The notes under the pieces were generated by a model. It had not been told where the DNA came from. It saw only the letters and a list, made by a program, of their open reading frames with translations, and made no database searches. This document shows positions 1-13,262 of a DNA stretch of 64,000 nt, piece after piece; the stretch's first letter is position 1, and the number at the start of each line of letters is the position of its first letter. The DNA is taken from positions 416,079 to 480,078 of the forward strand of contig CAYOCJ010000001.1 of NCBI GenBank assembly GCA_964402565.1, read 5' to 3'. The stretch is from an uncultured Gammaproteobacteria bacterium (GTDB taxonomy: Bacteria; Patescibacteriota; Patescibacteriia; UBA1558; 2-01-FULL-52-15). Position numbers and translations under genes: made by a program.

Positions 1-833
1 AGATCATCTTTAAAAAGTTGCAATTACCGTTAAAGAAACCGAACCTGAAACCATGGGCCCAGCTGGTACGCCGCGTGCATGCAAAGAAGAATTCGGTAAA
101 GATAGCTTTGGTCGGGAAATATACTGAAAACACTGATGCCTATATCAGCGTCATCGAAGCATTGAAATCAGCCTGTTATCACAGCAATGTCGATCTCGAG
201 CTTTTATGGGTTGCTGCTGTCGGCCTTGAAAAAAAGGATAAAACCGAATTTGCAAAATTAAAGAAGGCGCAAGGTATTGTAGTACCGGGTGGTTTCGGAG
301 GGCGCGGTATCGAGGGAAAGATCATTGCTGCTGAGTATGCCCGCGAGAATAAGATTCCGTATCTCGGATTGTGCCTGGGCATGCAGATCGCGACCATTGA
401 ATTTGCGCGTCATGCTGCAGGGCTTGCCGGGGCAAATTCGACTGAATTCGATGAGAAGACAAAATATCCGGTCATTCACATTTTGCCAGGCCAGGAATCA
501 ATAGAGGATAAGGGCGGCACGTTGCGTCTTGGATCGTACCCATGCATTTTAGACAGAAAATCGATCAGTTATAAAGCATATGGCAAACGCCGCATTGATG
601 AACGGCATCGGCACCGTTATGAGTTCAATATGGAGTACCGGGAGCTGCTCGAGAAAAAGGGGTATCTCATTGCAGGCATTTCACCTGACAAAAAACTTGT
701 CGAGATCATGGAGCTGAAAGGACATCCATTCTTCGTCGCATCACAATTCCACCCTGAATTCAAATCAAGGCCGCTCAGGCCGCATCCCTTGTTCTGGGAG
801 TTTGTAAAAACAATTACCAGGCTTGCAAAATAA
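1..833 (+). CDS. pyrG: CTP synthase, C-terminal glutamine amidotransferase half (5'-partial; gene starts upstream of window)
   Basis: Reading frame is open from the window edge. Linker KIALVGKY, the GATase class-I nucleophile motif GLCLGMQ and the HPEF region are present. The synthetase domain is missing, so the gene is truncated at the window edge. Confidence 0.85.
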   Translation, partial: IIFKKLQLPLKKPNLKPWAQLVRRVHAKKNSVKIALVGKYTENTDAYISVIEALKSACYHSNVDLELLWVAAVGLEKKDKTEFAKLKKAQGIVVPGGFGGRGIEGKIIAAEYARENKIPYLGLCLGMQIATIEFARHAAGLAGANSTEFDEKTKYPVIHILPGQESIEDKGGTLRLGSYPCILDRKSISYKAYGKRRIDERHRHRYEFNMEYRELLEKKGYLIAGISPDKKLVEIMELKGHPFFVASQFHPEFKSRPLRPHPLFWEFVKTITRLAK

Positions 834-852
834 ATGTGGGAATTAACCCATG

Positions 853-886
853 AAAAATACCACCAACTGAAGTTGATGGTATTTTT
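853..886 (+). terminator. intrinsic terminator after pyrG (A-tract/15-bp stem/T-tract, bidirectional-type)
   Basis: aaaaataccaccaac-tgaa-gttgatggtattttt is an inverted repeat with one mismatch. It ends in a T-run 20 nt after the pyrG stop. Confidence 0.55.
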
Positions 887-1026
887 CATGGCTGGCTTGG
901 AGGGACTATGTACGAACTGTTAGATGGGAGGACATGTTCCCTTATCCGAGCGTAGATTTGCAGCAGATGCAGGATTTACTGACGCTTGCTCGCTAATATC
1001 GTAGCATTTTCAAGCCCTTCTTGGGT

Positions 1027-1054
1027 AGGCGCTCAATGCGCCGATTTTTTATTT
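1027..1054 (+). terminator. GC hairpin + T-run (second terminator-like element in pyrG-distal noncoding region)
   Basis: ggcgc-tcaat-gcgcc followed by gattttttatttt. It sits ~190 bp downstream of the pyrG stop and no convincing CDS lies between. Confidence 0.4.
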
Positions 1055-1355
1055 TGGGTGGTGGGTGTATGGGAATCGCGCCCGCGACTTTTCGCGGGGA
1101 CACCCTCACCAAGTTGGTATATTCCTGGGCTAAACCTTTCTTAGCTATAGGTATAGGTAATACAAAAGGGTGTATACGGATTGTAAGTGAATAGCATGGG
1201 AGTAGTAACAAAATAACTGCATGCTATCCAATACTACATGTATGTATCTGTCTTTTCATGTCGATTGATAACAAAAAACATGAAGTAGCATGACAAGGGG
1301 GTATCACCCTGTCTCTCTTGCAGAGTTTCGGCAGAGGAAAGTCAGAGCTTGCAGA

Positions 1356-1808
1356 CTAACTCCGCTTGGCTTGTTCTTTCTTCAGTCGTCGCCAGTCGTA
1401 GAAATCTATCTTCTTATTCTCTTCAACAAGAAAGACGTAGAGGTTTAGCTTATCTGCAACATTATAAGGCAACCGTCTTACTATCAAATCACGGAAGTTA
1501 GCTGGGAATCCGACACCGTATTTATAGCCGTATTTGTAGCCACGCTTTCCATCACTCTTCATCCGAGTGATTATTTGTCCAAGTGCCAGGTTGAAGTTTA
1601 CTTCACGATGCGAACGTGGATATTTCGCAGTTTTTGAAGCGTCACCCTTACACTCAATAAGCCAGTAGCGAGCGAACTTGTTGTTCCGCACTTTGATGTC
1701 CACGCCGTGCTCAGTCAGACCTTTACTTCGAAGGTTTCGGCTCCATCCTTTTCTGAATAGATACTCAATGATGTTGTCTTGAACAAACTTTTCTGTGAGT
1801 AATTTCAT
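1356..1808 (-). CDS. standalone PD-(D/E)xK nuclease-domain protein resembling the HsdR N-terminal (Mrr-cat-like) domain
   Basis: 150 aa. GVDIKV ... LIECKGD matches the D...ExK catalytic core. The N-terminal xxL(F)RKGW motif parallels LLQKSGW at the N-terminus of the adjacent HsdR. There is a 5-nt gap to the upstream hsdMS stop, so it is probably co-transcribed. Confidence 0.6.
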   Translation of the reverse strand: MKLLTEKFVQDNIIEYLFRKGWSRNLRSKGLTEHGVDIKVRNNKFARYWLIECKGDASKTAKYPRSHREVNFNLALGQIITRMKSDGKRGYKYGYKYGVGFPANFRDLIVRRLPYNVADKLNLYVFLVEENKKIDFYDWRRLKKEQAKRS

Positions 1809-1813
1809 GGTAA

Positions 1814-4231
1814 TTATTCACCCCAAATATCTACTATCTTCTTCTTTATCTTGTCTTCGTAAATATCAATCATTTTTCTTGCAGATAATGCGTGTGCTTG
1901 TTCATCTTTTACTTGGGCAACGATTCTTTTTTGAACCTCCAGGCTTGGTAGAGGGATAGAGAGGTGCTTTAGTGCGTTTCCATTGAATTGAGGTTGTACT
2001 CCGCCAGTCACTAATACTTTTGCCTGATTCCAATAATCACTCGTTTGAGCAAATGCCCAATAATACTCTGGAAGAATCTTGGTCGTGTCGAGAATAAGAC
2101 GAATAAGGAATGAAGCAAACACTGCGGGATATTCTTCGCTAAAAATCATTGTCTTACCGTATGTTGCTCCCGTGCGAGCAACCAAGACGTCACCTGCATG
2201 TAATTGATATGGTTGTGATGCTTTAGTGATATTCACATATTTTTCGCCGTCTGCCCTCAAGTGTCCGTCGTTGCTGATGTCAGTAATTCGGATGTATCGA
2301 GCATCTCCTTTAGATTTTGCTGTTTCAGTGTATCCATATTCCATTTTGGCAATCTCGCCCAACTTCTTCCTTTCCCATGACGCATCAAATCCTATAGATG
2401 GCTTGTGATGTTCAATAACTTGATTAGCTCCGTCAATAACTTTCTGATAACTATCGAACTCTGCAATAATTTGCCTCTGCACATCAATTGGAGGTACGGG
2501 AATCCTAATTTTCGCCAAATCTTTTGGGTAAACATGAGGTTGTCCACCGCCTTGTTGGAAACTGTACAGATATTCCTGTTTTGCTTTTAGTAGGTAATAA
2601 GCAAAACGAGTCAATAAAATTGCTTCGTTTTTTGACTGAATCGTTGTGCAATCAGAAGCAAAGATTGGCTCAGAGAAGTAATTTACGAATCCTGCATATG
2701 CACCAGACGCACTTACTGTTATCACATTTCCAGCTCGATTCGAGACATCGTGGTAATAAGCAGGTTGCTGTCCACCAGCAATCACAGGAACGTTACCGCT
2801 CGCGGTCTGCTTTTTTGTAATCGCACTACCTTTTCTAACTTCACACAAATCATTTATCGCTACGTCGTCCCACTGTCTATTCACAATTTTTAGTGGGAGG
2901 TACTTTTCTCCAGTGAGATTAGATTCGTCATTATCTGCAATTTTCTTTTTGCTTATCGTCCAAGCAAATAAGTTATCCTTTTTTATGGAGATTCTTTTTT
3001 TGTTCAATATCGATTCCTTGTGGGCTTTCAGTATCTCAAGTGCGTGTGGTAAGTCGTTTTTGTCTATAGGTTTTCTTTGTGCGCCCAAATCAAAACCATC
3101 GTTGAGAACTTTCAAGAAAAGTATCTCCTTCGATTGTTTTGATAACTGATTGTCGAAGAACAGTATGCTGGTTTTGACTCCCGCATATGGATTGAATACG
3201 CCGCCTGGCAAAGATACAACAGCGTAAAGTCCATCTGCGACAAGCAACTTGCGCAATTGTTTATATGCACCAGCAGACTGGAAAATAACTCCTTCAGGAA
3301 CGATAATGCCCGCACGTCCTTTGTTGTTGAGATGTTCCATTATGTAATCAACAAACAAAACTTCGGCGCGGTTCGCTTGCACCATAAAACGTTTGTGAGG
3401 TCGAATGCCACCTTTCGGACTCATAAACGGAGGATTTGCCATCATTACATCAAAACGTTCATTCCAGCGTTCGTCACTCGTGAGAGTATCGTATTCGTGA
3501 ATACTGGGACTTGGTGAGCCATGCAAGTACATGTTTACGAGAGAAAGTTTGACCATATCTGGTGAAATATCGTACCCAGTAAGATTACTCATCAAGCGTT
3601 TCTTTTCGTCTGGCGTGAGCCGTTTCTTCTCGTTTGCTTTCAGAATATGTTTGTAGGCAGAAATAAGAAACCCTGCCGTGCCGCAAGCTGGGTCAAGGAT
3701 AGTTTCATCTTTTTTGGGGTCTATTACTTCAACAATAAAATCGATAATGTGGCGCGGTGTGCGAAATTGCCCTGCTTCACCTTGAGACCCCAAAATTGAA
3801 AGTAAGTATTCAAAAGCATCGCCCAAGTTTTCGCTGTGGTCGTATGAAAATCCGTTTATCTCCTTCAAGAAAAGGTTGAGTGTTTGCGGGTCACGGTATG
3901 GTAAGTAGGCATCCTTGAAGACATCACGGAAGAGTTGCGGCAGATGGGGGTTGGTGGACATCTTTCTAATTGCTTCCTCATAAAGATTCAAGCGTTCTTG
4001 TCCGCCAAGTTTCGCATCCATCAATTTACTCCAACTGTATTTACCAAATCCATTCGTGAAGAATTGTGTCTTGCCTTTTGGTAGAGAAGCGGATTGCAAA
4101 TCCATATCATCCATAAACTTATAGATGAGTGCAGTTGTAATCTGTTCAACTTGCGCTTTTGGGTCAGGAACTTTACCCACGAGAATATCCCGCGCTGTAT
4201 CAATTTTTCGTTTTGTTTCTTGTGTCAACAT
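1814..4231 (-). CDS. hsdM: Type I-like restriction-modification methyltransferase fused to specificity subunit (HsdM::HsdS single polypeptide, 805 aa)
   Basis: HsdM N-domain, SAM motif DPACGTAGFL and N6-adenine motif IV NPPF. The C-terminal ~400 aa carries two target-recognition domains separated by HsdS-type conserved central and C-terminal repeats (GGQPHVYPKDLAKIRIPVPP ... GGVQPQFNGNALKHLSIPLP). It is a continuous ORF. Confidence 0.85.
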   Translation of the reverse strand: MLTQETKRKIDTARDILVGKVPDPKAQVEQITTALIYKFMDDMDLQSASLPKGKTQFFTNGFGKYSWSKLMDAKLGGQERLNLYEEAIRKMSTNPHLPQLFRDVFKDAYLPYRDPQTLNLFLKEINGFSYDHSENLGDAFEYLLSILGSQGEAGQFRTPRHIIDFIVEVIDPKKDETILDPACGTAGFLISAYKHILKANEKKRLTPDEKKRLMSNLTGYDISPDMVKLSLVNMYLHGSPSPSIHEYDTLTSDERWNERFDVMMANPPFMSPKGGIRPHKRFMVQANRAEVLFVDYIMEHLNNKGRAGIIVPEGVIFQSAGAYKQLRKLLVADGLYAVVSLPGGVFNPYAGVKTSILFFDNQLSKQSKEILFLKVLNDGFDLGAQRKPIDKNDLPHALEILKAHKESILNKKRISIKKDNLFAWTISKKKIADNDESNLTGEKYLPLKIVNRQWDDVAINDLCEVRKGSAITKKQTASGNVPVIAGGQQPAYYHDVSNRAGNVITVSASGAYAGFVNYFSEPIFASDCTTIQSKNEAILLTRFAYYLLKAKQEYLYSFQQGGGQPHVYPKDLAKIRIPVPPIDVQRQIIAEFDSYQKVIDGANQVIEHHKPSIGFDASWERKKLGEIAKMEYGYTETAKSKGDARYIRITDISNDGHLRADGEKYVNITKASQPYQLHAGDVLVARTGATYGKTMIFSEEYPAVFASFLIRLILDTTKILPEYYWAFAQTSDYWNQAKVLVTGGVQPQFNGNALKHLSIPLPSLEVQKRIVAQVKDEQAHALSARKMIDIYEDKIKKKIVDIWGE

Positions 4232-4233
4232 AA

Positions 4234-6750
4234 TTACATGTATGCGTTTAGAGAAACGTAGTCCTTCACGTATTCTGGTATGCGCTCAATCCAGCCATTT
4301 AGTTCCTGGAGGTCAGCAAATGTGAGTTTTGGATTGGTTGCAAGTCGGGTGTATTCTCCCTTTTCGATAATGTCTCTGATTTCGTTGTCAGTAATATACG
4401 CCTTCAAGTAGTTCTTGATTGGCATAACATATTTATTTTCGGGTTTATTGATGGCAACGAATTGCTCAAACTCATTTTCAAGCAAGTCGTCCTTTGATTT
4501 GAAGTTAGTGATGCCGCCGAATGCCTTTTCAATAAACTCGCGGATGCCGATACGACGGTCTGCTTTCACTGATTTACGCAACTTCTCCAGGCTGAAATAA
4601 TCTTCGGGCTTATTGAAGATATTGTCTTTCACGTAGTTCTCGATGGTTGCCAAGTCTCCCTCTTCGTATTTTTGCTTGATGAACGAATCTTCTTTGACTA
4701 CCGCTTCAAACCTTTCGAAAAGTTTTCGGTCTATTTTCATCCCTTCAACACCCACTGCTGTTTCAGAAAACGTCTTGAGAGGGTCAGGTTGAGTGATAAT
4801 GATTTCATCAATGTTCACACCTTCGCCACCCTCTTCACCTCCAGTACCTATCTTTGGTGGAAGTCGCAAAACTTCATCATAGTCATACTTCTCTTCAAAG
4901 TATTCACAGTTAGCAAAGAAATCAAAAAGCTTGAACTTATCTTTTGGCACAGAAGCGGTCTCAAGCTCTCCATCATCTTTTTGTTGATGATTGAAGGTGT
5001 ATTTACGCGTACCTCGTCCTTTTATTTGAATAAAATCAGTTGGCGAGAATATAGGGCGCATTAGGCACACGTTCAAAATATCCTCACAATCATATCCAGT
5101 AGTCATCATCCCCACAGTTACACAAACACGAGTTTTGCTTGAAAGATAACCTTCAAGAAACTTAGAGTGTCCGTTGAGGTTATTGTTTGCAAAACTGATA
5201 GTGAAGGATTGTGCATCTGAAATGTTTGAGCTGACTTGCACGGCAAAATCCGAGTTATATTTCCCAGGATAAAGTTGTTCGGCAAACTGGTTGAGTATCT
5301 GAGTAACTTTTGAAGCGTGTTTTTGGCTTACACAGAACACAATGGTTTTCCCAATTTCTCCAGTAATGGGGTCTTTGATTGCATTCTCAACAAAAGTTTT
5401 GCAGAAAATCTGATTAGTCTTATCAGAAAAAAACTTTCTCTCAAAATCTGTATGGAAGAAGGATTGCTCTTCTTCTTTTCCTTCCTCGTCTTCAACCATC
5501 ATCGCGTAACCCTTTTCTGAAAGAAGCTCTGTGGTTATTTCTGTGCGAGCATCAGCAACCACTGGATTTACCAGATAGCCATCTTTGACTCCATCAAGCA
5601 ACGTGTAGCGAAAAGTTGGCTCGCCAGTTTCGCAACCAAAAGTTTTATATGTATCAAAAAGCTGGCGACGTTCCCACGCACGAGGGTCTTTGGAGTTCAA
5701 TTTTTCTGGGTCTATACCTTTCAGATAGTTTTTTGGTGTTGCTGTAAGACCAAGCTTATAGCCCACAAAGTATTCGAACACCGCACGACTGTTGCCACCA
5801 ATAGAACGATGGGCTTCGTCGGAAATAAGAAGGTCAAAATCCGTTGGAGAAAAAAGTTTCTGATACTTATTATTGAAAGAAAGACTTTGAACAGTAGAGA
5901 CGACAATTTCCGCCTTGCGCCAGTCATCCTTATTCTCTTTATAGACGACAGCAGTGTAATCCTTCGAGAGCCATTTCTTGAAGTTCTTTGCTGCCTGGTC
6001 TTCCAGTTCAAGACGGTCAACGAGGAATAAGATGCGCTTGGCATTCCCTGACTTCAAGAACAATTTGATGACTGCTGCCGAAACCAGCGTTTTGCCCGTC
6101 CCTGTTGCCATTTCAAATAGGAAACGGTCATTGCCACCTCCTGCGGCTTCCTGAAGGGCTTTTATGGCACGTAGCTGGTATGGGCGAAGTAGTTTTAGTC
6201 CTTCCGCATCAATAAAACTTTGCTTTTGAGAGTCATCTGACCATCGAGGGTCGTTTTGATAATCCGCTTTCTGCGTAAGTGCAATGTAGTCACTTTCAAC
6301 TTGCTCTTCTGCTAATCGTTTTGAATCAGGTTTGAATGCTTCAAAATGCTGGAGTGAGTCTGGTGTTGGAAATTGAATAATAACAGTAGGATTGCCGCGC
6401 TCTAAATCCCAGAAGTAATGCAAATTGCCGTTTGAAAGAATAACAAAGCGTACATTGAGTGATTGCGCATAGCGCCGCGCCTGTTCTTTTCCATCAAGAG
6501 GGTCTTTGTCTTCAGACTTTGCCTCAAGCACCACATACGGAAAGCCCTTATCGTCGGAAAGAAGAAAATCTATAAATCCGTTCTTGGTTTTTTCGAAGTT
6601 ATTACCAAGTTCATCAATTCCTGGTTTAGTCAGTTTTACGTTTGGCTCAAGAGTGATGTTTGCCTTACCATTTTCGTCGTCGAAAAACCTCCAGCCTGAC
6701 TTCTGGAGAAGGTCATTTATTTTTATTCGTGCTTTAGCTTCTTTTTGCAT
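4234..6750 (-). CDS. hsdR: Type I restriction enzyme R subunit-like protein (N-terminal PD-(D/E)xK nuclease + SF2 helicase), short 838-aa form
   Basis: N-terminal nuclease motif IDFLL..VVLEAKS. Helicase motif I MATGTGKT, motif II LISDEAHR and motif VI QIKGRGTRK. The C-terminal helical region and the 3-nt gap to hsdMS suggest co-transcription. Confidence 0.85.
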   Translation of the reverse strand: MQKEAKARIKINDLLQKSGWRFFDDENGKANITLEPNVKLTKPGIDELGNNFEKTKNGFIDFLLSDDKGFPYVVLEAKSEDKDPLDGKEQARRYAQSLNVRFVILSNGNLHYFWDLERGNPTVIIQFPTPDSLQHFEAFKPDSKRLAEEQVESDYIALTQKADYQNDPRWSDDSQKQSFIDAEGLKLLRPYQLRAIKALQEAAGGGNDRFLFEMATGTGKTLVSAAVIKLFLKSGNAKRILFLVDRLELEDQAAKNFKKWLSKDYTAVVYKENKDDWRKAEIVVSTVQSLSFNNKYQKLFSPTDFDLLISDEAHRSIGGNSRAVFEYFVGYKLGLTATPKNYLKGIDPEKLNSKDPRAWERRQLFDTYKTFGCETGEPTFRYTLLDGVKDGYLVNPVVADARTEITTELLSEKGYAMMVEDEEGKEEEQSFFHTDFERKFFSDKTNQIFCKTFVENAIKDPITGEIGKTIVFCVSQKHASKVTQILNQFAEQLYPGKYNSDFAVQVSSNISDAQSFTISFANNNLNGHSKFLEGYLSSKTRVCVTVGMMTTGYDCEDILNVCLMRPIFSPTDFIQIKGRGTRKYTFNHQQKDDGELETASVPKDKFKLFDFFANCEYFEEKYDYDEVLRLPPKIGTGGEEGGEGVNIDEIIITQPDPLKTFSETAVGVEGMKIDRKLFERFEAVVKEDSFIKQKYEEGDLATIENYVKDNIFNKPEDYFSLEKLRKSVKADRRIGIREFIEKAFGGITNFKSKDDLLENEFEQFVAINKPENKYVMPIKNYLKAYITDNEIRDIIEKGEYTRLATNPKLTFADLQELNGWIERIPEYVKDYVSLNAYM

Positions 6751-6779
6751 TGTTCATTTTCATCTTCATTGTGGTGAGC

Positions 6780-6965
6780 CTACTTTCTCTTCTTCTTCCG
6801 AAAGCTGGACTCAATAAAGCCGTCGAGGTCTTCTTTACGAAAACGCCAACGACCTATCCACGCTGCTTTTATTTTTTCTTCGTGAAGATAACGGAACAAA
6901 GTCCGCTCTCCAACGTCGAGATATTTAGCAGCTTCCTGCAAAGTCAGAAACTCTTTTCTTTTCAT
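6780..6965 (-). CDS. small helix-turn-helix DNA-binding protein, excisionase/AlpA (HTH_17)-like; candidate controller or recombination directionality factor
   Basis: 61 aa. LTLQEAAKYLDVGERTLFRYLHEEKI is a typical Xis/AlpA-family HTH. It is the first gene of the minus-strand operon and ends 29 nt upstream of the hsdR start. Confidence 0.55.
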   Translation of the reverse strand: MKRKEFLTLQEAAKYLDVGERTLFRYLHEEKIKAAWIGRWRFRKEDLDGFIESSFRKKKRK

Positions 6966-7042
6966 ACTTTGTAATACTTATAGTGTAGCCGTTTTTTGAC
7001 ATCATGGCAAGAAATGGCAAGTTCTGATAAAATGATTTTACG

Positions 7043-7756
7043 ATGTATATGGGAATGACTTTAGAAGAAAAAGATGCTTTGCTCGCCAGTGTTATTGAAG
7101 AACACTATGCGACTCAAAAACATAATCCTACCTGTGTGCCTGTTGTCCATCTTCGAGACAAAGGTTTTGATGTTTCTGATACTCGCAATGGTTTGTGGCG
7201 TCTAAAAGAAAAAGGTGTGGTAAAAAGTTATCAACACGGCTGGGGTTTTCTTGAGCTTCAGAACAGTAAAAAGGTTTTTGTAAGGACAAGAACTGAAGAG
7301 CCTGATGACGGTAGCGACGATTTTGAGGCATACAGCGTTGAAATTGATACTAAAAAGCTTGAGCACACTGCATCCCAAAAACCAAACAGAGCGGCAAAAA
7401 AAGAAGTAGTTGATTTTGATACTCTAAATGCCGCTATTCACTTCGGAAAGAAGCATTACACATTCCAAAAAGGACGTGATAATCAAGTACGCTTGAAATT
7501 GTTTAGAGACCTCTGGGAGAGAAGAGAGGTCATCTATAATAATAAAGTAACGAGAAAAGGAGAACCCTTCCCTCCAGGTGCAATAGCCACACGAATTGGC
7601 TTGGTTGATAGTGCGCAAGGTTTTGAAAGAAACAAGGAAGCAAAGAGCAAGTTGGACACACTAATAAAAAACCTGGAGACAAACCTTCAAAGAGGAGGTA
7701 TTCCAATACGCATATACAAAAGAGGTGGAATCAAACTAATAGCAGGCGCGAAATAA
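7043..7756 (+). CDS. hypothetical protein (island cargo)
   Basis: 237-aa ORF with a good coding look and no recognisable motifs. It is followed by a terminator. Confidence 0.5.
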   Translation: MYMGMTLEEKDALLASVIEEHYATQKHNPTCVPVVHLRDKGFDVSDTRNGLWRLKEKGVVKSYQHGWGFLELQNSKKVFVRTRTEEPDDGSDDFEAYSVEIDTKKLEHTASQKPNRAAKKEVVDFDTLNAAIHFGKKHYTFQKGRDNQVRLKLFRDLWERREVIYNNKVTRKGEPFPPGAIATRIGLVDSAQGFERNKEAKSKLDTLIKNLETNLQRGGIPIRIYKRGGIKLIAGAK

Positions 7757-7768
7757 GCTTCAAATAGA

Positions 7769-7800
7769 GCACCCCCGAATAGACGGGAGTGTTTTGTTTT
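7769..7800 (+). terminator. intrinsic terminator after ORF 7043-7756
   Basis: gcaccccc-gaataga-cgggagtg stem with one mismatch, followed by ttttgtttt. A second hairpin gggtgca-ttattt-tgcaccc lies at 7814-7833. Confidence 0.5.
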
Positions 7801-7868
7801 GTGGAAAAAATAAGGGTGCATTATTTTGCACCCCTCTTCCAAATAAGACACTCAGTCAGAATGTGTGC

Positions 7869-8111
7869 ATGGAAGATAGAAATGTAGAAGTAAGCGATTT
7901 GGGTCTGGCGTCGCTCTTGGCGACACTCCAGTTTGAGTTGGTCGGTCTGGAGCGCGTGAATACGAAGCGCATAAACTTCGTCTTCAAATACGCTGACGGA
8001 ATCCAAAGAGTTATAGATGATTTTTGGGCTGATGCCAAAGTAACTGTGCAAGCACAGAGTCTTTTTCATACACAAAAAACACTCAAGAATCGTCTTTACG
8101 CCCTCAAGTAG
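7869..8111 (+). CDS. small hypothetical protein (island cargo; first of three tightly coupled small ORFs)
   Basis: The ORF track gives 7794-8111, but the 5' part overlaps the terminator hairpins. The internal Met at 7869 (MEDRNVEV...) is the preferred start. The stop abuts the next ATG. Confidence 0.4.
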   Translation: MEDRNVEVSDLGLASLLATLQFELVGLERVNTKRINFVFKYADGIQRVIDDFWADAKVTVQAQSLFHTQKTLKNRLYALK

Positions 8112-8270
8112 ATGGAACTCACAGATGTACAACTCAAGCTACTTCGAGAGCCGTTTGAGGAAGCAGGGGCACTCAAAGGACTTACCTATGAAGAAATAAA
8201 AAAACTTCTTGAAGAGATTGCAGAAGTGTACATCGTATTGGCTAACGAAAATCTGCTTGCAAAGAAATGA
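8112..8270 (+). CDS. 52-aa helical hypothetical protein (island cargo)
   Basis: The ATG follows the previous stop directly. The stop overlaps the next gene's ATG (ATGA), so it is translationally coupled on both sides. It is below the ORF-track size cutoff. Confidence 0.35.
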   Translation: MELTDVQLKLLREPFEEAGALKGLTYEEIKKLLEEIAEVYIVLANENLLAKK

Positions 8271-8866
8271 ATATGAAAAAGAAAACGAAAATCCCACTCT
8301 ATACAACTGAAGTAGAACCTGAAGACTATACACCGTTTTCAATGGTGTTCGCCTCCGTTTGGAAAGCCTACGATGCAGGTGAAATCAATCCTGAAAAGCT
8401 ACTGCTTTTTCTCAACCTCTATCGAGGTGTGAACCCCCACAACGGGTATGGATTTACGAGTTATGCCGAGCTGTGCCTACGTCTCAAACGAAGGTCAACA
8501 AAACTGGACGAGAATGCAATGAATAAGCTCATGGTGTCATTGCGAGATGATAACCACCTTGTGTGGTTTCCCCAGCATAGCGGAAGCAGAGAGTTTCCTT
8601 ACGTTTTAGCAAAGTTCAAGTTGGCTCAAATAAACAGCAAGGACAAGGAGAAATGGATAGACATCAAGCAGTATTTTCAGAGCAAAAATCAGAGCATCAG
8701 CAGAGCTTATGAACCTTCTTTACCCAGCACTCCACCAGAACCTCCACCGAGGCAACCTATGTCAGAGCAGAGGTTAGAAAGGTCGAATGGTGAATCAATT
8801 ACAAGCATAAAAGAGGATTTGGATAGACGTTATGGCAGACCTCCCCAGACGAATACCGAGTCATAG
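8267..8866 (+). CDS. hypothetical protein (island cargo; Pro-rich acidic C-terminal tail)
   Basis: 199-aa ORF coupled to the upstream small ORF. No recognisable catalytic motif. Confidence 0.5.
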   Translation: MNMKKKTKIPLYTTEVEPEDYTPFSMVFASVWKAYDAGEINPEKLLLFLNLYRGVNPHNGYGFTSYAELCLRLKRRSTKLDENAMNKLMVSLRDDNHLVWFPQHSGSREFPYVLAKFKLAQINSKDKEKWIDIKQYFQSKNQSISRAYEPSLPSTPPEPPPRQPMSEQRLERSNGESITSIKEDLDRRYGRPPQTNTES

Positions 8867-8894
8867 ACATAGACAGATTCGATTATAAAAAATT

Positions 8895-9209
8895 ATGAAA
8901 TCGACTAATCGTTTCCAAATAAGTGAAAGGCATCCGAGCGAATATCCAATAAACAACAACGAAGATGCTCACTGTGTTGATATAGCTCTCGCACTCGGAG
9001 AATCGGATATGAGGTATATCCTTGCACGTCGGCAGCAACTTGGGATGCAGGCAATCAGTGAAGCATACTCGGTTGTGAAGGATGAGATTCGCAAAGGAAA
9101 ATGCCAGTCTCCTGGAAGGCTCTTCAACTACTTGCTTACTCAAAAACTCGAAGAAAAGAAAAAGTCTAAATCTCTGGGGTCAAGAGAACCGCCAATAGAC
9201 GATGGTTGA
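8895..9209 (+). CDS. hypothetical protein (island cargo)
   Basis: 104-aa ORF, no motifs recognised. Confidence 0.4.
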   Translation: MKSTNRFQISERHPSEYPINNNEDAHCVDIALALGESDMRYILARRQQLGMQAISEAYSVVKDEIRKGKCQSPGRLFNYLLTQKLEEKKKSKSLGSREPPIDDG

Positions 9210-9331
9210 CCCCATGTAAGTTATGTTCTTTGCACCTTGATAACTGGACTTGCCACAACCTGCCATAGTGCTATACTTATATTGCTACCTACAAGTTTGA
9301 ATATGTGCACGGGGTCTCTGCTTTTTTAGCT

Positions 9332-9395
9332 CCAATTGTGGGCGAAAAGGGGCAGTCGAGACCTCCGCAATTGGTTGCCTCGTGCAATTCAATCT
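9332..9395. promoter_or_regulatory. repeated CAATTG-type motifs / imperfect inverted repeat in the 260-bp intergenic region upstream of the recombinase gene pair
   Basis: ccaattgtgg (9332-9341) and ccgcaattgg (9365-9374) form a 10-bp imperfect inverted repeat. A third tgcaattcaat copy follows. This is a candidate operator or recombination site. Confidence 0.3.
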
Positions 9396-9469
9396 TGTGG
9401 GTAGCAGGCTCCTCGGCTGTCCCTTTTCGTGTTTATAAATAACCAGGGACGGGTCGGAGCGAATAAGTT

Positions 9470-9945
9470 ATGGCAACGCTACCACCCACATGCACGTCTC
9501 ACGGATACAAAGATAGCTCTGGAAAAACCCAGGTCGTGTTTAGTTCGGATTGCTACTATCCAGGAAGTAACTGCATCCTCACAAACGACCAGTGTGTCTC
9601 TACATTCAAAGAAACTGGTTGCAAGGGTGGAGATGGACAGTATGCGTGTGCGCAAGCCTATTACCTCAAGCAACAAAGCCAGGTAAAGCCACAAGCTCAA
9701 CCTGTGATAATTACAAATACTGGTCAAGAAAATGCGGAGTTGAAAACACAACTTCAAGAAATGCAGAAACAAATCGAGACGTTACAGTCAAAACAAGCTA
9801 CGGCTACCACAACGGTGCCGCCAGCCCAAACTACACCCCTATTTGAAAACCCAGTCGTTCCATATTCGATTTTGGGAATACTCATAGTAGGAATCGTGGT
9901 GTTGATGAAGATGAAAATCATTACAATCTCATCTAACAAACAACC

Positions 9946-9949
<4 letters not shown>
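9470..9949 (+). CDS. Cys-rich, coiled-coil, C-terminally membrane-anchored hypothetical protein, translationally coupled to the serine recombinase
   Basis: 159 aa with 8 Cys in the first 60 residues, a Q/T-rich coiled coil and a C-terminal TM helix (ILGILIVGIVVLM). The stop overlaps the recombinase ATG (ATGA). Confidence 0.5.
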
Positions 9950-11567
<1,618 letters not shown>

Positions 11568-11654
11568 ATAAAACAGAATTACGATACTATGAATAGTACT
11601 GAGCGTCAATTCAACAGCTACAAAAAATAGTAACATTGTGGTATAGTACGCTAT

Positions 11655-13262
11655 ATGCAAATTTCAGAAAGCATTAAGGATTTGTATTTGCGATTGATTG
11701 CTATACAGCGGGCATTATATGTGCCTGAGGACGTGACCATAAACAAGATCAACGTCGACGATATCGTCTCGAAACTCGCTGTTCTCTACGAACGGATGCG
11801 GAATACGATGGATTATCAGGAAGACCACTTGCTGCGCCGTTTTGCTATCGAGCGGAATATCAAGCGGCGCTTGGTCCTGGAAAGCTTGTCGCCCAAGATC
11901 GCTCAATCGCTGATCGAAGAATTGATACGCAGCGGCTACATGGCTAATAATAGCGTGCCCGAGACCATCGTCATGCCCGTGAGCAATGTGATCAATAAGT
12001 ATGTCTATCTCATTGAACTGGTGCAGGATGATATCACCGATATTTCCGAGCGCAGGAAGATCGTGAATTGGATCGCCGAGGTCATGGCATGCGAGATCGA
12101 TCTGTTGCTGGTGCCTGAGATCCGCGTTGATGCTTTGATCGAAAGCCTGTACTCGATCGTTCGCGACAGGATCAAGATGCGCGGTGCGAATTTAAGCGAG
12201 CGCGAAAAGAATATCCAGCTCTACATTACCCTTCACAAAGAACTGGTGAAGTCGGACAACCCCATCATCTCCTATCATTTGCTGAATTTGTATTTCCCTG
12301 ACTGGCAGCATGCAGATAAAGAGCTGACTGAATTTGTCGCAAGCAAGATCGCAAGCGTGTATTATGGCATTCAGAATCATCTGGATAATCCGATCCGGAC
12401 AAAAATAGCGAAAAGCCTTAAAAAACAGATCGTTGTTTTTAAAGTTCTGCGCGAGCTTATAGCGATGCATGAAAATGATCTGGTAAATTTATTCGGAAAC
12501 CCTGAATTACTGGAGTCTGAAGCGCGGAAAGTTATCGAGCGGAATTACAAGATGACCAGGCGCAAATTGAGAAACAGCTCTTTGCGCGCTATCTTATATA
12601 TTTTCATTACCAAGGTTGCCTTGGCATTCTTGCTGGAGTATCCATATGACAAGTATGTGATCGGCCATGTGAACCAAGTAGCGTTATCGATCAATGTCAT
12701 TGTACCTCCGTTACTCATGTTCTTCATCACCTTGTCGGCTCGGCTGCCAGGGGTAACGAATACGCGTTTGATCATGGCCGAGCTAAAAAATGTCGTCTAC
12801 GGTGATCCGGGCGATGAGATCCTCTGTGAATTGAATGTGAAGCGCAAGCAGGGCCCTGTCTATTTTTTCATCGAGTACCTGTTCTACATGCTGCTCTATG
12901 GCTTGATATTCGGCATCATCATTTACTGGCTGAGCCTCCTGAAATTCAATCTCTTATCCGGCGGCATTTTTATCTTCTTCGTGACTGCAGTGAGCTTCTT
13001 CGGAACTCGCATACGCCAGCTTACCAAGGAATACTCGGTTGAGAATAAGCGCGAGGGTCTGATCGGGCTTATTACCATCTTTTTCTCGCTGCCGATCATT
13101 CGTGCCGGCCATTGGCTGTCCGTGAATATGCGGCGCATTAACTTATTCGTTTTCGTCATGGATTTTATCATAGAGGCGCCATTCAAGCTTGTGGTCGAGA
13201 TCATCGAAAGCTGGTTCGTTTTCCTGCGTGAAAAAAAGGAAGATACCTACAAGACAAGCTAG
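11655..13262 (+). CDS. hypothetical polytopic membrane protein (soluble N-terminal ~300 aa + C-terminal multi-TM region)
   Basis: 535-aa ORF, no motif recognised. A TATAGT -10 lies just upstream. Confidence 0.6.
   Translation: MQISESIKDLYLRLIAIQRALYVPEDVTINKINVDDIVSKLAVLYERMRNTMDYQEDHLLRRFAIERNIKRRLVLESLSPKIAQSLIEELIRSGYMANNSVPETIVMPVSNVINKYVYLIELVQDDITDISERRKIVNWIAEVMACEIDLLLVPEIRVDALIESLYSIVRDRIKMRGANLSEREKNIQLYITLHKELVKSDNPIISYHLLNLYFPDWQHADKELTEFVASKIASVYYGIQNHLDNPIRTKIAKSLKKQIVVFKVLRELIAMHENDLVNLFGNPELLESEARKVIERNYKMTRRKLRNSSLRAILYIFITKVALAFLLEYPYDKYVIGHVNQVALSINVIVPPLLMFFITLSARLPGVTNTRLIMAELKNVVYGDPGDEILCELNVKRKQGPVYFFIEYLFYMLLYGLIFGIIIYWLSLLKFNLLSGGIFIFFVTAVSFFGTRIRQLTKEYSVENKREGLIGLITIFFSLPIIRAGHWLSVNMRRINLFVFVMDFIIEAPFKLVVEIIESWFVFLREKKEDTYKTS

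Follow-up and report, generated by a model that had tools for sequence, protein, structure and literature searches.

A predicted core-only PD-(D/E)xK nuclease at the end of a Type I restriction operon, a candidate portable cargo gene of serine-recombinase elements

Several described systems come close to the gene reported here, a 150-amino-acid (150-aa) open reading frame (ORF) with an ATG start at 1356..1808 on the minus strand of a 64,000-nucleotide stretch of contig CAYOCJ010000001.1 (hereafter the window; coordinates are from its ORF listing). In the E. coli immigration control region, mrr adjoins hsdRMS. Excision of the fdxN element is performed by XisF, a large serine recombinase. This excision also genetically requires xisH and xisI (PMC4874684), and recombination directionality factors take on many folds (PMC12286644). 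NOV_C, or DUF3883 (PF13020), is a PD-(D/E)xK family of unknown function whose usual fusion partners are ATPase, helicase and other domains (PMC3424549). HARE-HTH and RAMA domains, which are joined to endonuclease domains in restriction enzymes, have been proposed to read modified DNA (PMC4738411, PMC11037411). The gene in the window stands last in an operon with the genes of a Type I restriction-modification (R-M) system, and an earlier sequence-only note on this DNA, the original prediction, had described its product as a standalone mini-nuclease sharing motifs with the restriction subunit HsdR. The reading that we favour, with a confidence somewhat above even, is that its product is a DNA endonuclease consisting of the PD-(D/E)xK core only, which acts autonomously and belongs to an uncharacterised family resembling Mrr, NOV_C and XisH. 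In this reading, the gene travels as portable cargo of serine-recombinase elements, in which it stands last in defence operons.

The ORF contains the expected nuclease motifs, and each string quoted for the two proteins was located at its expected place: KFVQDNIIEYLFRKGW at residues 7-22, GVDIKV at 35-40 and LIECKGD at 50-56 of the 150-aa protein, and ARIKINDLLQKSGW at 7-20, FIDFLL at 59-64 and VLEAKS at 74-79 of the 838-aa HsdR. The small protein is strongly basic (pI 10.1; 34 K+R vs 16 D+E). An AlphaFold model built on an alignment of 79 diverse family members, which superseded an earlier model built on a shallow alignment (pLDDT 74), reached a pLDDT of 93.3 and a pTM of 0.88. Its topology is alpha-beta-beta-beta-alpha-beta (helix 6-19, strands 22-28, 38-42 and 48-53, helix 64-80, strand 95-102), with D37 just ahead of strand 2, E52 and K54 at the end of strand 3, and Q78/R82 on helix 2. 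The nuclease core takes up the whole 150 aa in this model, leaving no room for a DNA-binding or modification-reader domain. When the model was compared with the PDB using Foldseek, every informative match was a PD-(D/E)xK nuclease; the top two were the XisH structures 2inb (E 4e-4) and 2okf, and further matches included EndoMS, VRR-NUC, tRNA-splicing endonuclease, the FokI cleavage domain, N.BspD6I and Hjc, as well as a CdiA-CT toxin. E6, D37, E52, K54, G77, Q78 and R82 are each conserved in at least 90% of the 79 members, whose identity extends down to 25%, and the D...ExK pattern is retained in nearly all 50%-identity cluster representatives that cover the region. With a predicted fold of this kind and conserved catalytic residues, the proposal of a nuclease stands. 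These results support, from sequence and model, a minimal nuclease consisting of the PD-(D/E)xK core alone, with an intact active site and predicted cleavage activity.

We found 413 close homologues, which are 65-84% identical and all have about 150 aa; where a source is named, as in a few cases, the label is Kaiserbacteria, Microgenomates group or Methylomirabilota. A profile search that exhaustively covered 1.84 billion representatives (cut-off E<=1e-3) yielded 274 clusters at 50% identity, nearly all of them standalone proteins of 130-160 aa; family members derive mostly from metagenome-assembled genomes (MAGs) labelled Patescibacteria/candidate phyla radiation (CPR). A scan of viral contigs returned one locus only, indicating that the 150-aa gene is not a typical phage gene. 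To place the family, each of the 79 members of the diverse alignment was scanned singly against Pfam. Matches were obtained to Mrr_cat (24 members), NOV_C (20), MTES_1575 (6), UPF0102 (5), VRR_NUC (3), HSDR_N (1) and XisH (1), and to HSDR_N_2 in none; those to Mrr_cat, the commonest, were weak (E<=0.1, best 1e-5). Scanned against PADLOC, the same 79 relatives gave 2 stray matches at ~0.006 only. The window protein itself had zero matches in NCBIfam and PHROGs, no match to Mrr_cat (PF04471) in Pfam at E<=1, the curated threshold not being reached, and a sole Pfam match, to NOV_C, which lies below threshold. An 81%-identical homologue carries the automatic UniRef name 'Restriction endonuclease type IV Mrr domain-containing protein'. 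As in Mrr_cat and the Type IV enzyme Mrr, the PD-(D/E)xK core begins with a helix, after which comes D...(E/Q)xK, and the family is found beside Type I R-M genes; unlike Mrr, the 150-aa protein has no N-terminal winged-helix DNA-binding domain and comprises the core only. It differs likewise from NOV_C in being encoded by a standalone gene.

Some longer relatives do carry additional domains. Of the ten, seven are fused to a HARE-HTH, at either the N or the C terminus, and one has a RAMA, so that reader domains are confined to a minority of relatives. In the sequences concerned (P0147, P0150, P0155, P0176, P0153, P0163, P0187 and P0127), either a HARE-HTH at one or the other terminus or a C-terminal RAMA/DUF4357 region is present. 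Such fusions have the usual, Type IV-like layout of a restriction enzyme, and the longer relatives look like a small set of uncharacterised Type IV restriction enzymes that pair a reader with a nuclease. A Mrr-like Type IV nuclease was one of three functions originally proposed, and it is the one that fits best, given the Mrr_cat matches, the UniRef name and the HARE-HTH/RAMA relatives, but the window protein has neither a Mrr_cat match nor a reader. The family is thus unannotated and uncharacterised, and it is placed between Mrr_cat/NOV_C by sequence comparison and XisH by predicted structure and profile comparison.

The original prediction had also taken the motifs to mirror those of HsdR and to imply a duplicated or split HsdR nuclease module. 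The strings and their order are real: the two proteins belong to the same superfamily, are encoded in the same operon, share the order of motifs (Glu and GW on the N-terminal helix, D, ExK, Q), and have the same D-to-E spacing of 15 residues. The other spacings differ between the 150-aa protein and HsdR (W-to-D, 15 vs 41; K-to-Q, 24 vs 12), as do the loop lengths in general, and the 150-aa protein lacks a motor domain. BLASTP between the two gave E=1 and left the motifs unaligned. Comparison of the family profile with an HsdR N-terminal profile, the latter built on four sequences, gave an hhalign probability of 2.1%, with the first helix (E...GW) alone aligned over 35 columns. Among the relatives, HSDR_N and HSDR_N_2 matches are confined to the single one noted above. 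The shared motifs are only the generic pattern of the superfamily, and a specific similarity is not statistically supported. Moreover, HsdR has a complete nuclease motif of its own, with catalytic D61, E76-A-K78 and Q90xxxY94 intact and D61/E76/K78/Q90/Y94 invariant in the HsdR N-terminal alignment, so the Type I enzyme is not short of a cleavage module. A duplicated or split module thus finds no support in these comparisons.

In an attempt to investigate the genomic context of the family, we gathered 126 non-redundant loci from GTDB genomes and metagenomes, 73 of them at least 8 kb long, and counted marker genes by seed searches. By blastn, the gene itself (~1420-1808) was the only DNA common to the window and most loci; one locus (L009) was the only one that also shared the Type I genes, in the same three-gene arrangement. 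A co-directional upstream neighbour lies within 50 bp of the gene in 26 of 44 GTDB loci. These neighbours are heterogeneous, only about 9 of 32 being methyltransferases or R-M proteins, and the idea of a constant methyltransferase upstream was rejected. Among the 73 long loci, methyltransferases were present in 43, HsdR/Res helicases in 27, HsdS in 16, an HTH_17 gene in 21 and a large serine recombinase in 30; consistent co-occurrence with hsdR/M/S was therefore not seen, the helicase being found in 27 only. Elsewhere, a nuclease gene 65-88% identical to that of the window follows Type III R-M, Type II methyltransferase, CBASS, PIN or Schlafen genes, or stands alone by a tRNA and a serine recombinase. 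Operons in which it occurs comprise an N6_N4 methyltransferase, ResIII (Type III), the nuclease gene and an OLD nuclease (L008); HsdS, CBASS (SMODS + Cap15) and the nuclease gene (L015); Type I genes, Schlafen-AlbA_2, a Cas4-like protein and the nuclease gene (L017); hsdM, hsdS, a PIN protein, one further gene, hsdR and the nuclease gene (L041); a Dam methyltransferase, DUF6996/6997/7226, the nuclease gene and AAA_13 (L001); two Type II methyltransferases, Dam and N6_N4, and the nuclease gene (L003); and RhuM, one further gene and the nuclease gene (L030). Additional loci have Shedu, KAP NTPase or STAND ATPase genes close by. Such heterogeneous neighbours, with little but the gene itself in common, show the behaviour of a discrete, portable cassette and mark the nuclease gene as a resident of defence islands rather than a dedicated subunit.

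Two further arrangements were observed in these loci. In L026 (9932-13234), the nuclease gene lies within a Type I operon, between hsdS (together with a 295-aa gene without a Pfam family) and hsdR, much as prrC is placed in the prr locus. A protein of 785-797 aa without a Pfam family is encoded beside the nuclease gene in two of the Type I loci, downstream in L009 (10450-12807) and upstream in L029 (5300-7693); it may be another uncharacterised defence-island gene.

The gene is also missing from close relatives of the element that carries it. The cargo operon lies on an element of about 10 kb, one end of which is formed by a large serine recombinase at a tRNA-Gln. We identified four sister elements (L132-L135) whose recombinases are 60-74% identical to that of the window and which all share the HTH_17 gene (annotated in L132, L134 and L135; tblastn match in L133), a 237-aa gene, a DUF5659 gene and a 52-aa gene. 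The recombinase overlaps a tRNA-Gln in L132-L134, and no tRNA was found in L135. The 150-aa gene is absent from all four (tblastn), and their cargo differs. In L132, which has the same HsdR (87% identity) and M::S protein (55%), a 60-aa ORF and an SMC-like ATPase come next in place of the nuclease gene. Both the element and the Type I system can thus do without the gene; L132-L135 rule it out as an obligatory part of the backbone of the recombinase element, and a Type I system that is complete without the gene does not have a split-nuclease architecture.

These observations bear on the idea that the protein serves the neighbouring Type I enzyme as an accessory or a second cleavage subunit, in the form of a split or duplicated HsdR module recruited by the M::S protein. 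The tight operon (the gene starts 5 bp after the M::S stop codon, and hsdR and hsdM::S are 2 bp apart), the retention of the three-gene arrangement in L009 and the location of the gene between hsdS and hsdR in L026 would be expected of such a subunit. We nevertheless consider it very unlikely, as there is no specific similarity to the HsdR N-terminus, HsdR keeps its own D/ExK/QxxxY residues, unrelated systems precede the gene in most loci, and the HsdR and M::S proteins of L132 occur without it. The second cleavage module that had been suggested for M::S is not supported, on two of these grounds, namely the many unrelated partner systems and the absence of the gene from the sister Type I locus. 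Still less probable, to the point that we regard it as remote, is either a conventional Type II enzyme, with the methyltransferase next to it protecting its sites, or an anti-restriction decoy without catalytic activity. In 7 loci the gene directly follows a methyltransferase gene and, as noted, methyltransferases are present in 43 of the long ones, as a Type II pair would require; yet the same protein (65-88% identical) is encoded beside Type I systems with swapped target-recognition domains (TRDs), Type III systems and Dam and N4/N6 methyltransferases, and many loci have no methyltransferase. Methyltransferases of differing specificity could not all protect against one fixed cleavage specificity, and a Type II enzyme matched to its own methyltransferase was rejected, as one conserved protein occurs with many methyltransferase types. 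The decoy, which the original prediction had listed as an option, is contradicted by near-invariant catalytic residues and strong conservation in relatives.

The preferred reading of an autonomous endonuclease can be stated as follows. The 150-aa gene would be co-transcribed as the last gene of an HTH_17-hsdR-hsdM::S-nuclease operon, and this operon would ride on the ~10-kb element, mobilised by the large serine recombinase at the tRNA-Gln. As a self-contained cassette, the gene would recombine into the 3′ ends of many different defence operons. Its product would not be a Type I subunit but would most likely work alone, as an extra Type IV/Mrr-like restriction or defence nuclease; it is predicted to be a Mg2+-dependent DNA endonuclease and, by analogy with other minimal members of the fold, is probably homodimeric. 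If it is modification-dependent, a modification other than N6-methyladenine (6mA) seems more likely, because the gene is often beside N6-adenine methyltransferases and a 6mA-dependent activity would be self-destructive.

A number of points weigh against this reading. We infer a DNA substrate, autonomous action and a defence role, the last by guilt by association, and 24 of the 73 long loci have neither R-M nor recombinase markers. The NOV_C match of the window protein (E 0.008, residues 6-74) scored 16.6 bits vs a gathering threshold of 22.1, and nothing in PADLOC v2 was above threshold, the only match being Aga_REase-TIR at E 0.011. The lack of a reader or DNA-binding domain leaves no evident basis for discrimination between self and non-self, and an unregulated standalone nuclease should be toxic. 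Sequence identity across many lineages, at 65-88%, is much higher than is usual for a restriction enzyme. Lastly, the closest solved relative, XisH, is genetically tied to excision by a serine recombinase and not to restriction.

This last point leads to the main rival explanation, which is that the protein is not a defence nuclease but a XisH-like accessory of the large serine recombinase, acting in excision or directionality control or in maintenance of the element. XisH is the top structural match (TM-score 0.50-0.56, Foldseek probability 1.0) and, at E 0.07, the top PDB sequence match in hmmsearch. The family profile aligned with that of XisH, itself from an alignment low in diversity, over 106 columns with an hhalign probability of 72.5% and E 3e-5, with ALGQ, ExK and GW motifs in common. 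Both are standalone (XisH, PF08814, has ~140 aa), and both are found in large-serine-recombinase elements. The recombinases counted above lie in the flanks of those 30 long loci, and all 14 recombinases encoded upstream of the gene are divergent from it. In a subgroup ~50-56% identical to the window protein, which includes proteins from Saccharibacteria-labelled MAGs, a convergent recombinase is no more than 4 bp away in 7-8 loci; a tRNA, mostly tRNA-Ser, is found within 350 bp upstream of the nuclease gene in 12 loci, at a distance of 39-160 bp; and identities in the nuclease family and in the recombinases are correlated (r=0.59). The placement at the att side varies: the order is tRNA, gene, recombinase in loci where the gene abuts the recombinase, and the gene is at the far end of the cargo operon in the window. 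We consider this accessory role unlikely, since sister elements of the same recombinase clade and backbone (with the tRNA-Gln site in L132-L134) lack the nuclease gene, which is thus not needed by the window recombinase. No XisI-like partner was present among the Pfam families of the scanned upstream and downstream neighbours; the element contains an HTH_17 excisionase-type gene (6780-6965), a more conventional directionality factor; the Pfam XisH model matches 1 of the 79 members (E 0.018); the HARE-HTH/RAMA fusions of relatives favour restriction; and defence cargo commonly adjoins att sites and integrases anyway. The family differs from XisH further in not being cyanobacterial, and in the HMMER alignment D37 is paired with an Asn, and the Asp of XisH comes a few positions further on. 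The broader proposal that the family is an unrecognised, widely transferred sister group of XisH, a reader-less minimal nuclease located near att sites that aids the recombinase or the life cycle of the element through excision control or DNA processing, has in our view an equally small chance of being correct.

A compact module consisting of a tRNA-Ser, the nuclease gene and a convergent serine recombinase of ~450 aa (no more than 4 bp away) was observed in L023, L024 (9749-11797), L025 and L101-L104. The loci with this module include Saccharibacteria-labelled MAGs, and Type I R-M genes lie beyond the recombinase in L023 and L025.

Alternatively, the protein may be an RNA-targeting or abortive-infection/addiction toxin with the PD-(D/E)xK fold, which would stabilise the island or kill infected cells without restricting DNA. 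The fold also includes RNases, and the tRNA-splicing endonucleases and the CdiA-CT toxin among the Foldseek matches fit this idea, as do the weak best phmmer match of the protein in the PDB, the decapping nuclease Rai1, its extremely basic character and its residence on a mobile island. The fusion partners of relatives are readers of DNA modification, however, and the canonical DNA-nuclease residues E-D-ExK-Q are present. Nor is there a conserved antitoxin-like partner, adjacent small ORF or RNA: the downstream regions are unconserved by blastn, including the 520-bp gap that follows the nuclease gene, which has no conservation in other loci, and a search of Rfam over positions 1-13000 matched the tRNA alone, with no known RNA in this gap. 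We therefore think a toxin quite improbable, somewhat more so than the XisH-like accessory.

The cargo operon in the window is encoded on the minus strand. At its head is an HTH_17 (excisionase/MerR-like) gene of 61 aa (6780..6965, minus strand; an ORF with homologous HTH_17 heads in L002, L005, L132, L134 and L135). It is followed by hsdR (4234..6750, minus strand), whose 838-aa product is an EcoAI-like Type I restriction subunit with a superfamily 2 (SF2) motor (Pfam ResIII 7e-40, HSDR_N_2 2e-7, HSDR_N 3e-6; NCBIfam restrict_EcoAI 4e-73), and by an hsdM::hsdS fusion of 805 aa (1814..4231, minus strand) that combines an N6-adenine methyltransferase with two target-recognition domains (Pfam N6_Mtase 6e-55, Methylase_S 6e-44; PADLOC MTase_I 5e-101). 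M::S is less conserved than HsdR, as seen from the 55% vs 87% identity in L132, and L009 and the window have no DNA similarity across nt 2507-3036, inside the M::S gene. This divergence is consistent with swapping of target-recognition domains within the fused gene. The non-coding gap of 520 bp between pyrG and the nuclease gene (834-1355) is long for a compact genome; it contains a near-perfect 21-nt inverted repeat at 848-891, which is terminator-like and follows pyrG, and a GC-rich hairpin with a T-run at 1028-1052.

Divergent from this operon, on the plus strand at 7043..9949, are the element backbone genes of 237, 105 (DUF5659-like), 52, 199, 104 and 159 aa; by tblastn, the 237-, 105- and 52-aa genes are kept in L132-L135, and DUF5659 is annotated in L001, L133 and L134. 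Next is the large serine recombinase of 526 aa (9946..11526, plus strand), an ORF whose homologues have Resolvase and Recombinase domains. At its end, ~33 nt are shared with the 3′ end of tRNA-Gln(UUG) (11494..11567, minus strand; ARAGORN; Rfam tRNA, 65.6 bits), the likely attachment site of the element. Within the overlap (11494-11526), the last ~11 codons of the recombinase, reading WLGDRDSNPD and stop, are antisense to the 3′ end of the tRNA, and an overlap of ~30 nt between recombinase and tRNA 3′ ends was also observed in L001 (tRNA-Ser) and L132-L134 (tRNA-Gln). This recurrence indicates that the att site and the C-terminus of the recombinase are intertwined. The island has a GC content of ~40-44% vs 46-50% in its flanks; at its left end, no displaced tRNA-Gln fragment, direct repeats or long terminal repeat was found. 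In L132 and L133, the host order is ftsX, pyrG, tRNA-Gln and att/recombinase, all co-oriented. In the window, pyrG (18-833, plus strand) adjoins the cargo end with the nuclease gene, and the tRNA-Gln, on the minus strand, is 10.6 kb off at the recombinase end; compared with L132 and L133, the block formed by the tRNA-Gln and the island thus appears inverted relative to pyrG. The sister elements encode a replication gene of 567-741 aa (Prim-Pol/PriCT_1/AAA_25 or a Toprim primase; 7100-9900 in L132-L135) between the DUF5659-like gene and the recombinase, and the window element has small ORFs only (199, 104 and 159 aa) at this position, which suggests that it is a reduced, possibly non-replicative derivative.

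Standalone Mrr-like nucleases are common in defence islands and a close homologue is already automatically annotated as having an Mrr domain, so the presence of such a gene will not surprise a specialist. What remains is a well-defined, strongly conserved and unannotated family of core-only PD-(D/E)xK nucleases, comprising ~274 clusters. If the protein acts autonomously in restriction, it would rank with the smallest such modules known, and one would have to ask how a nuclease of 150 aa can distinguish foreign from host DNA. The measurable kinship with XisH also offers a route into the biochemistry of the XisH family and, should the protein prove to be a partner of the recombinase, may provide the first handle on the activity of XisH.

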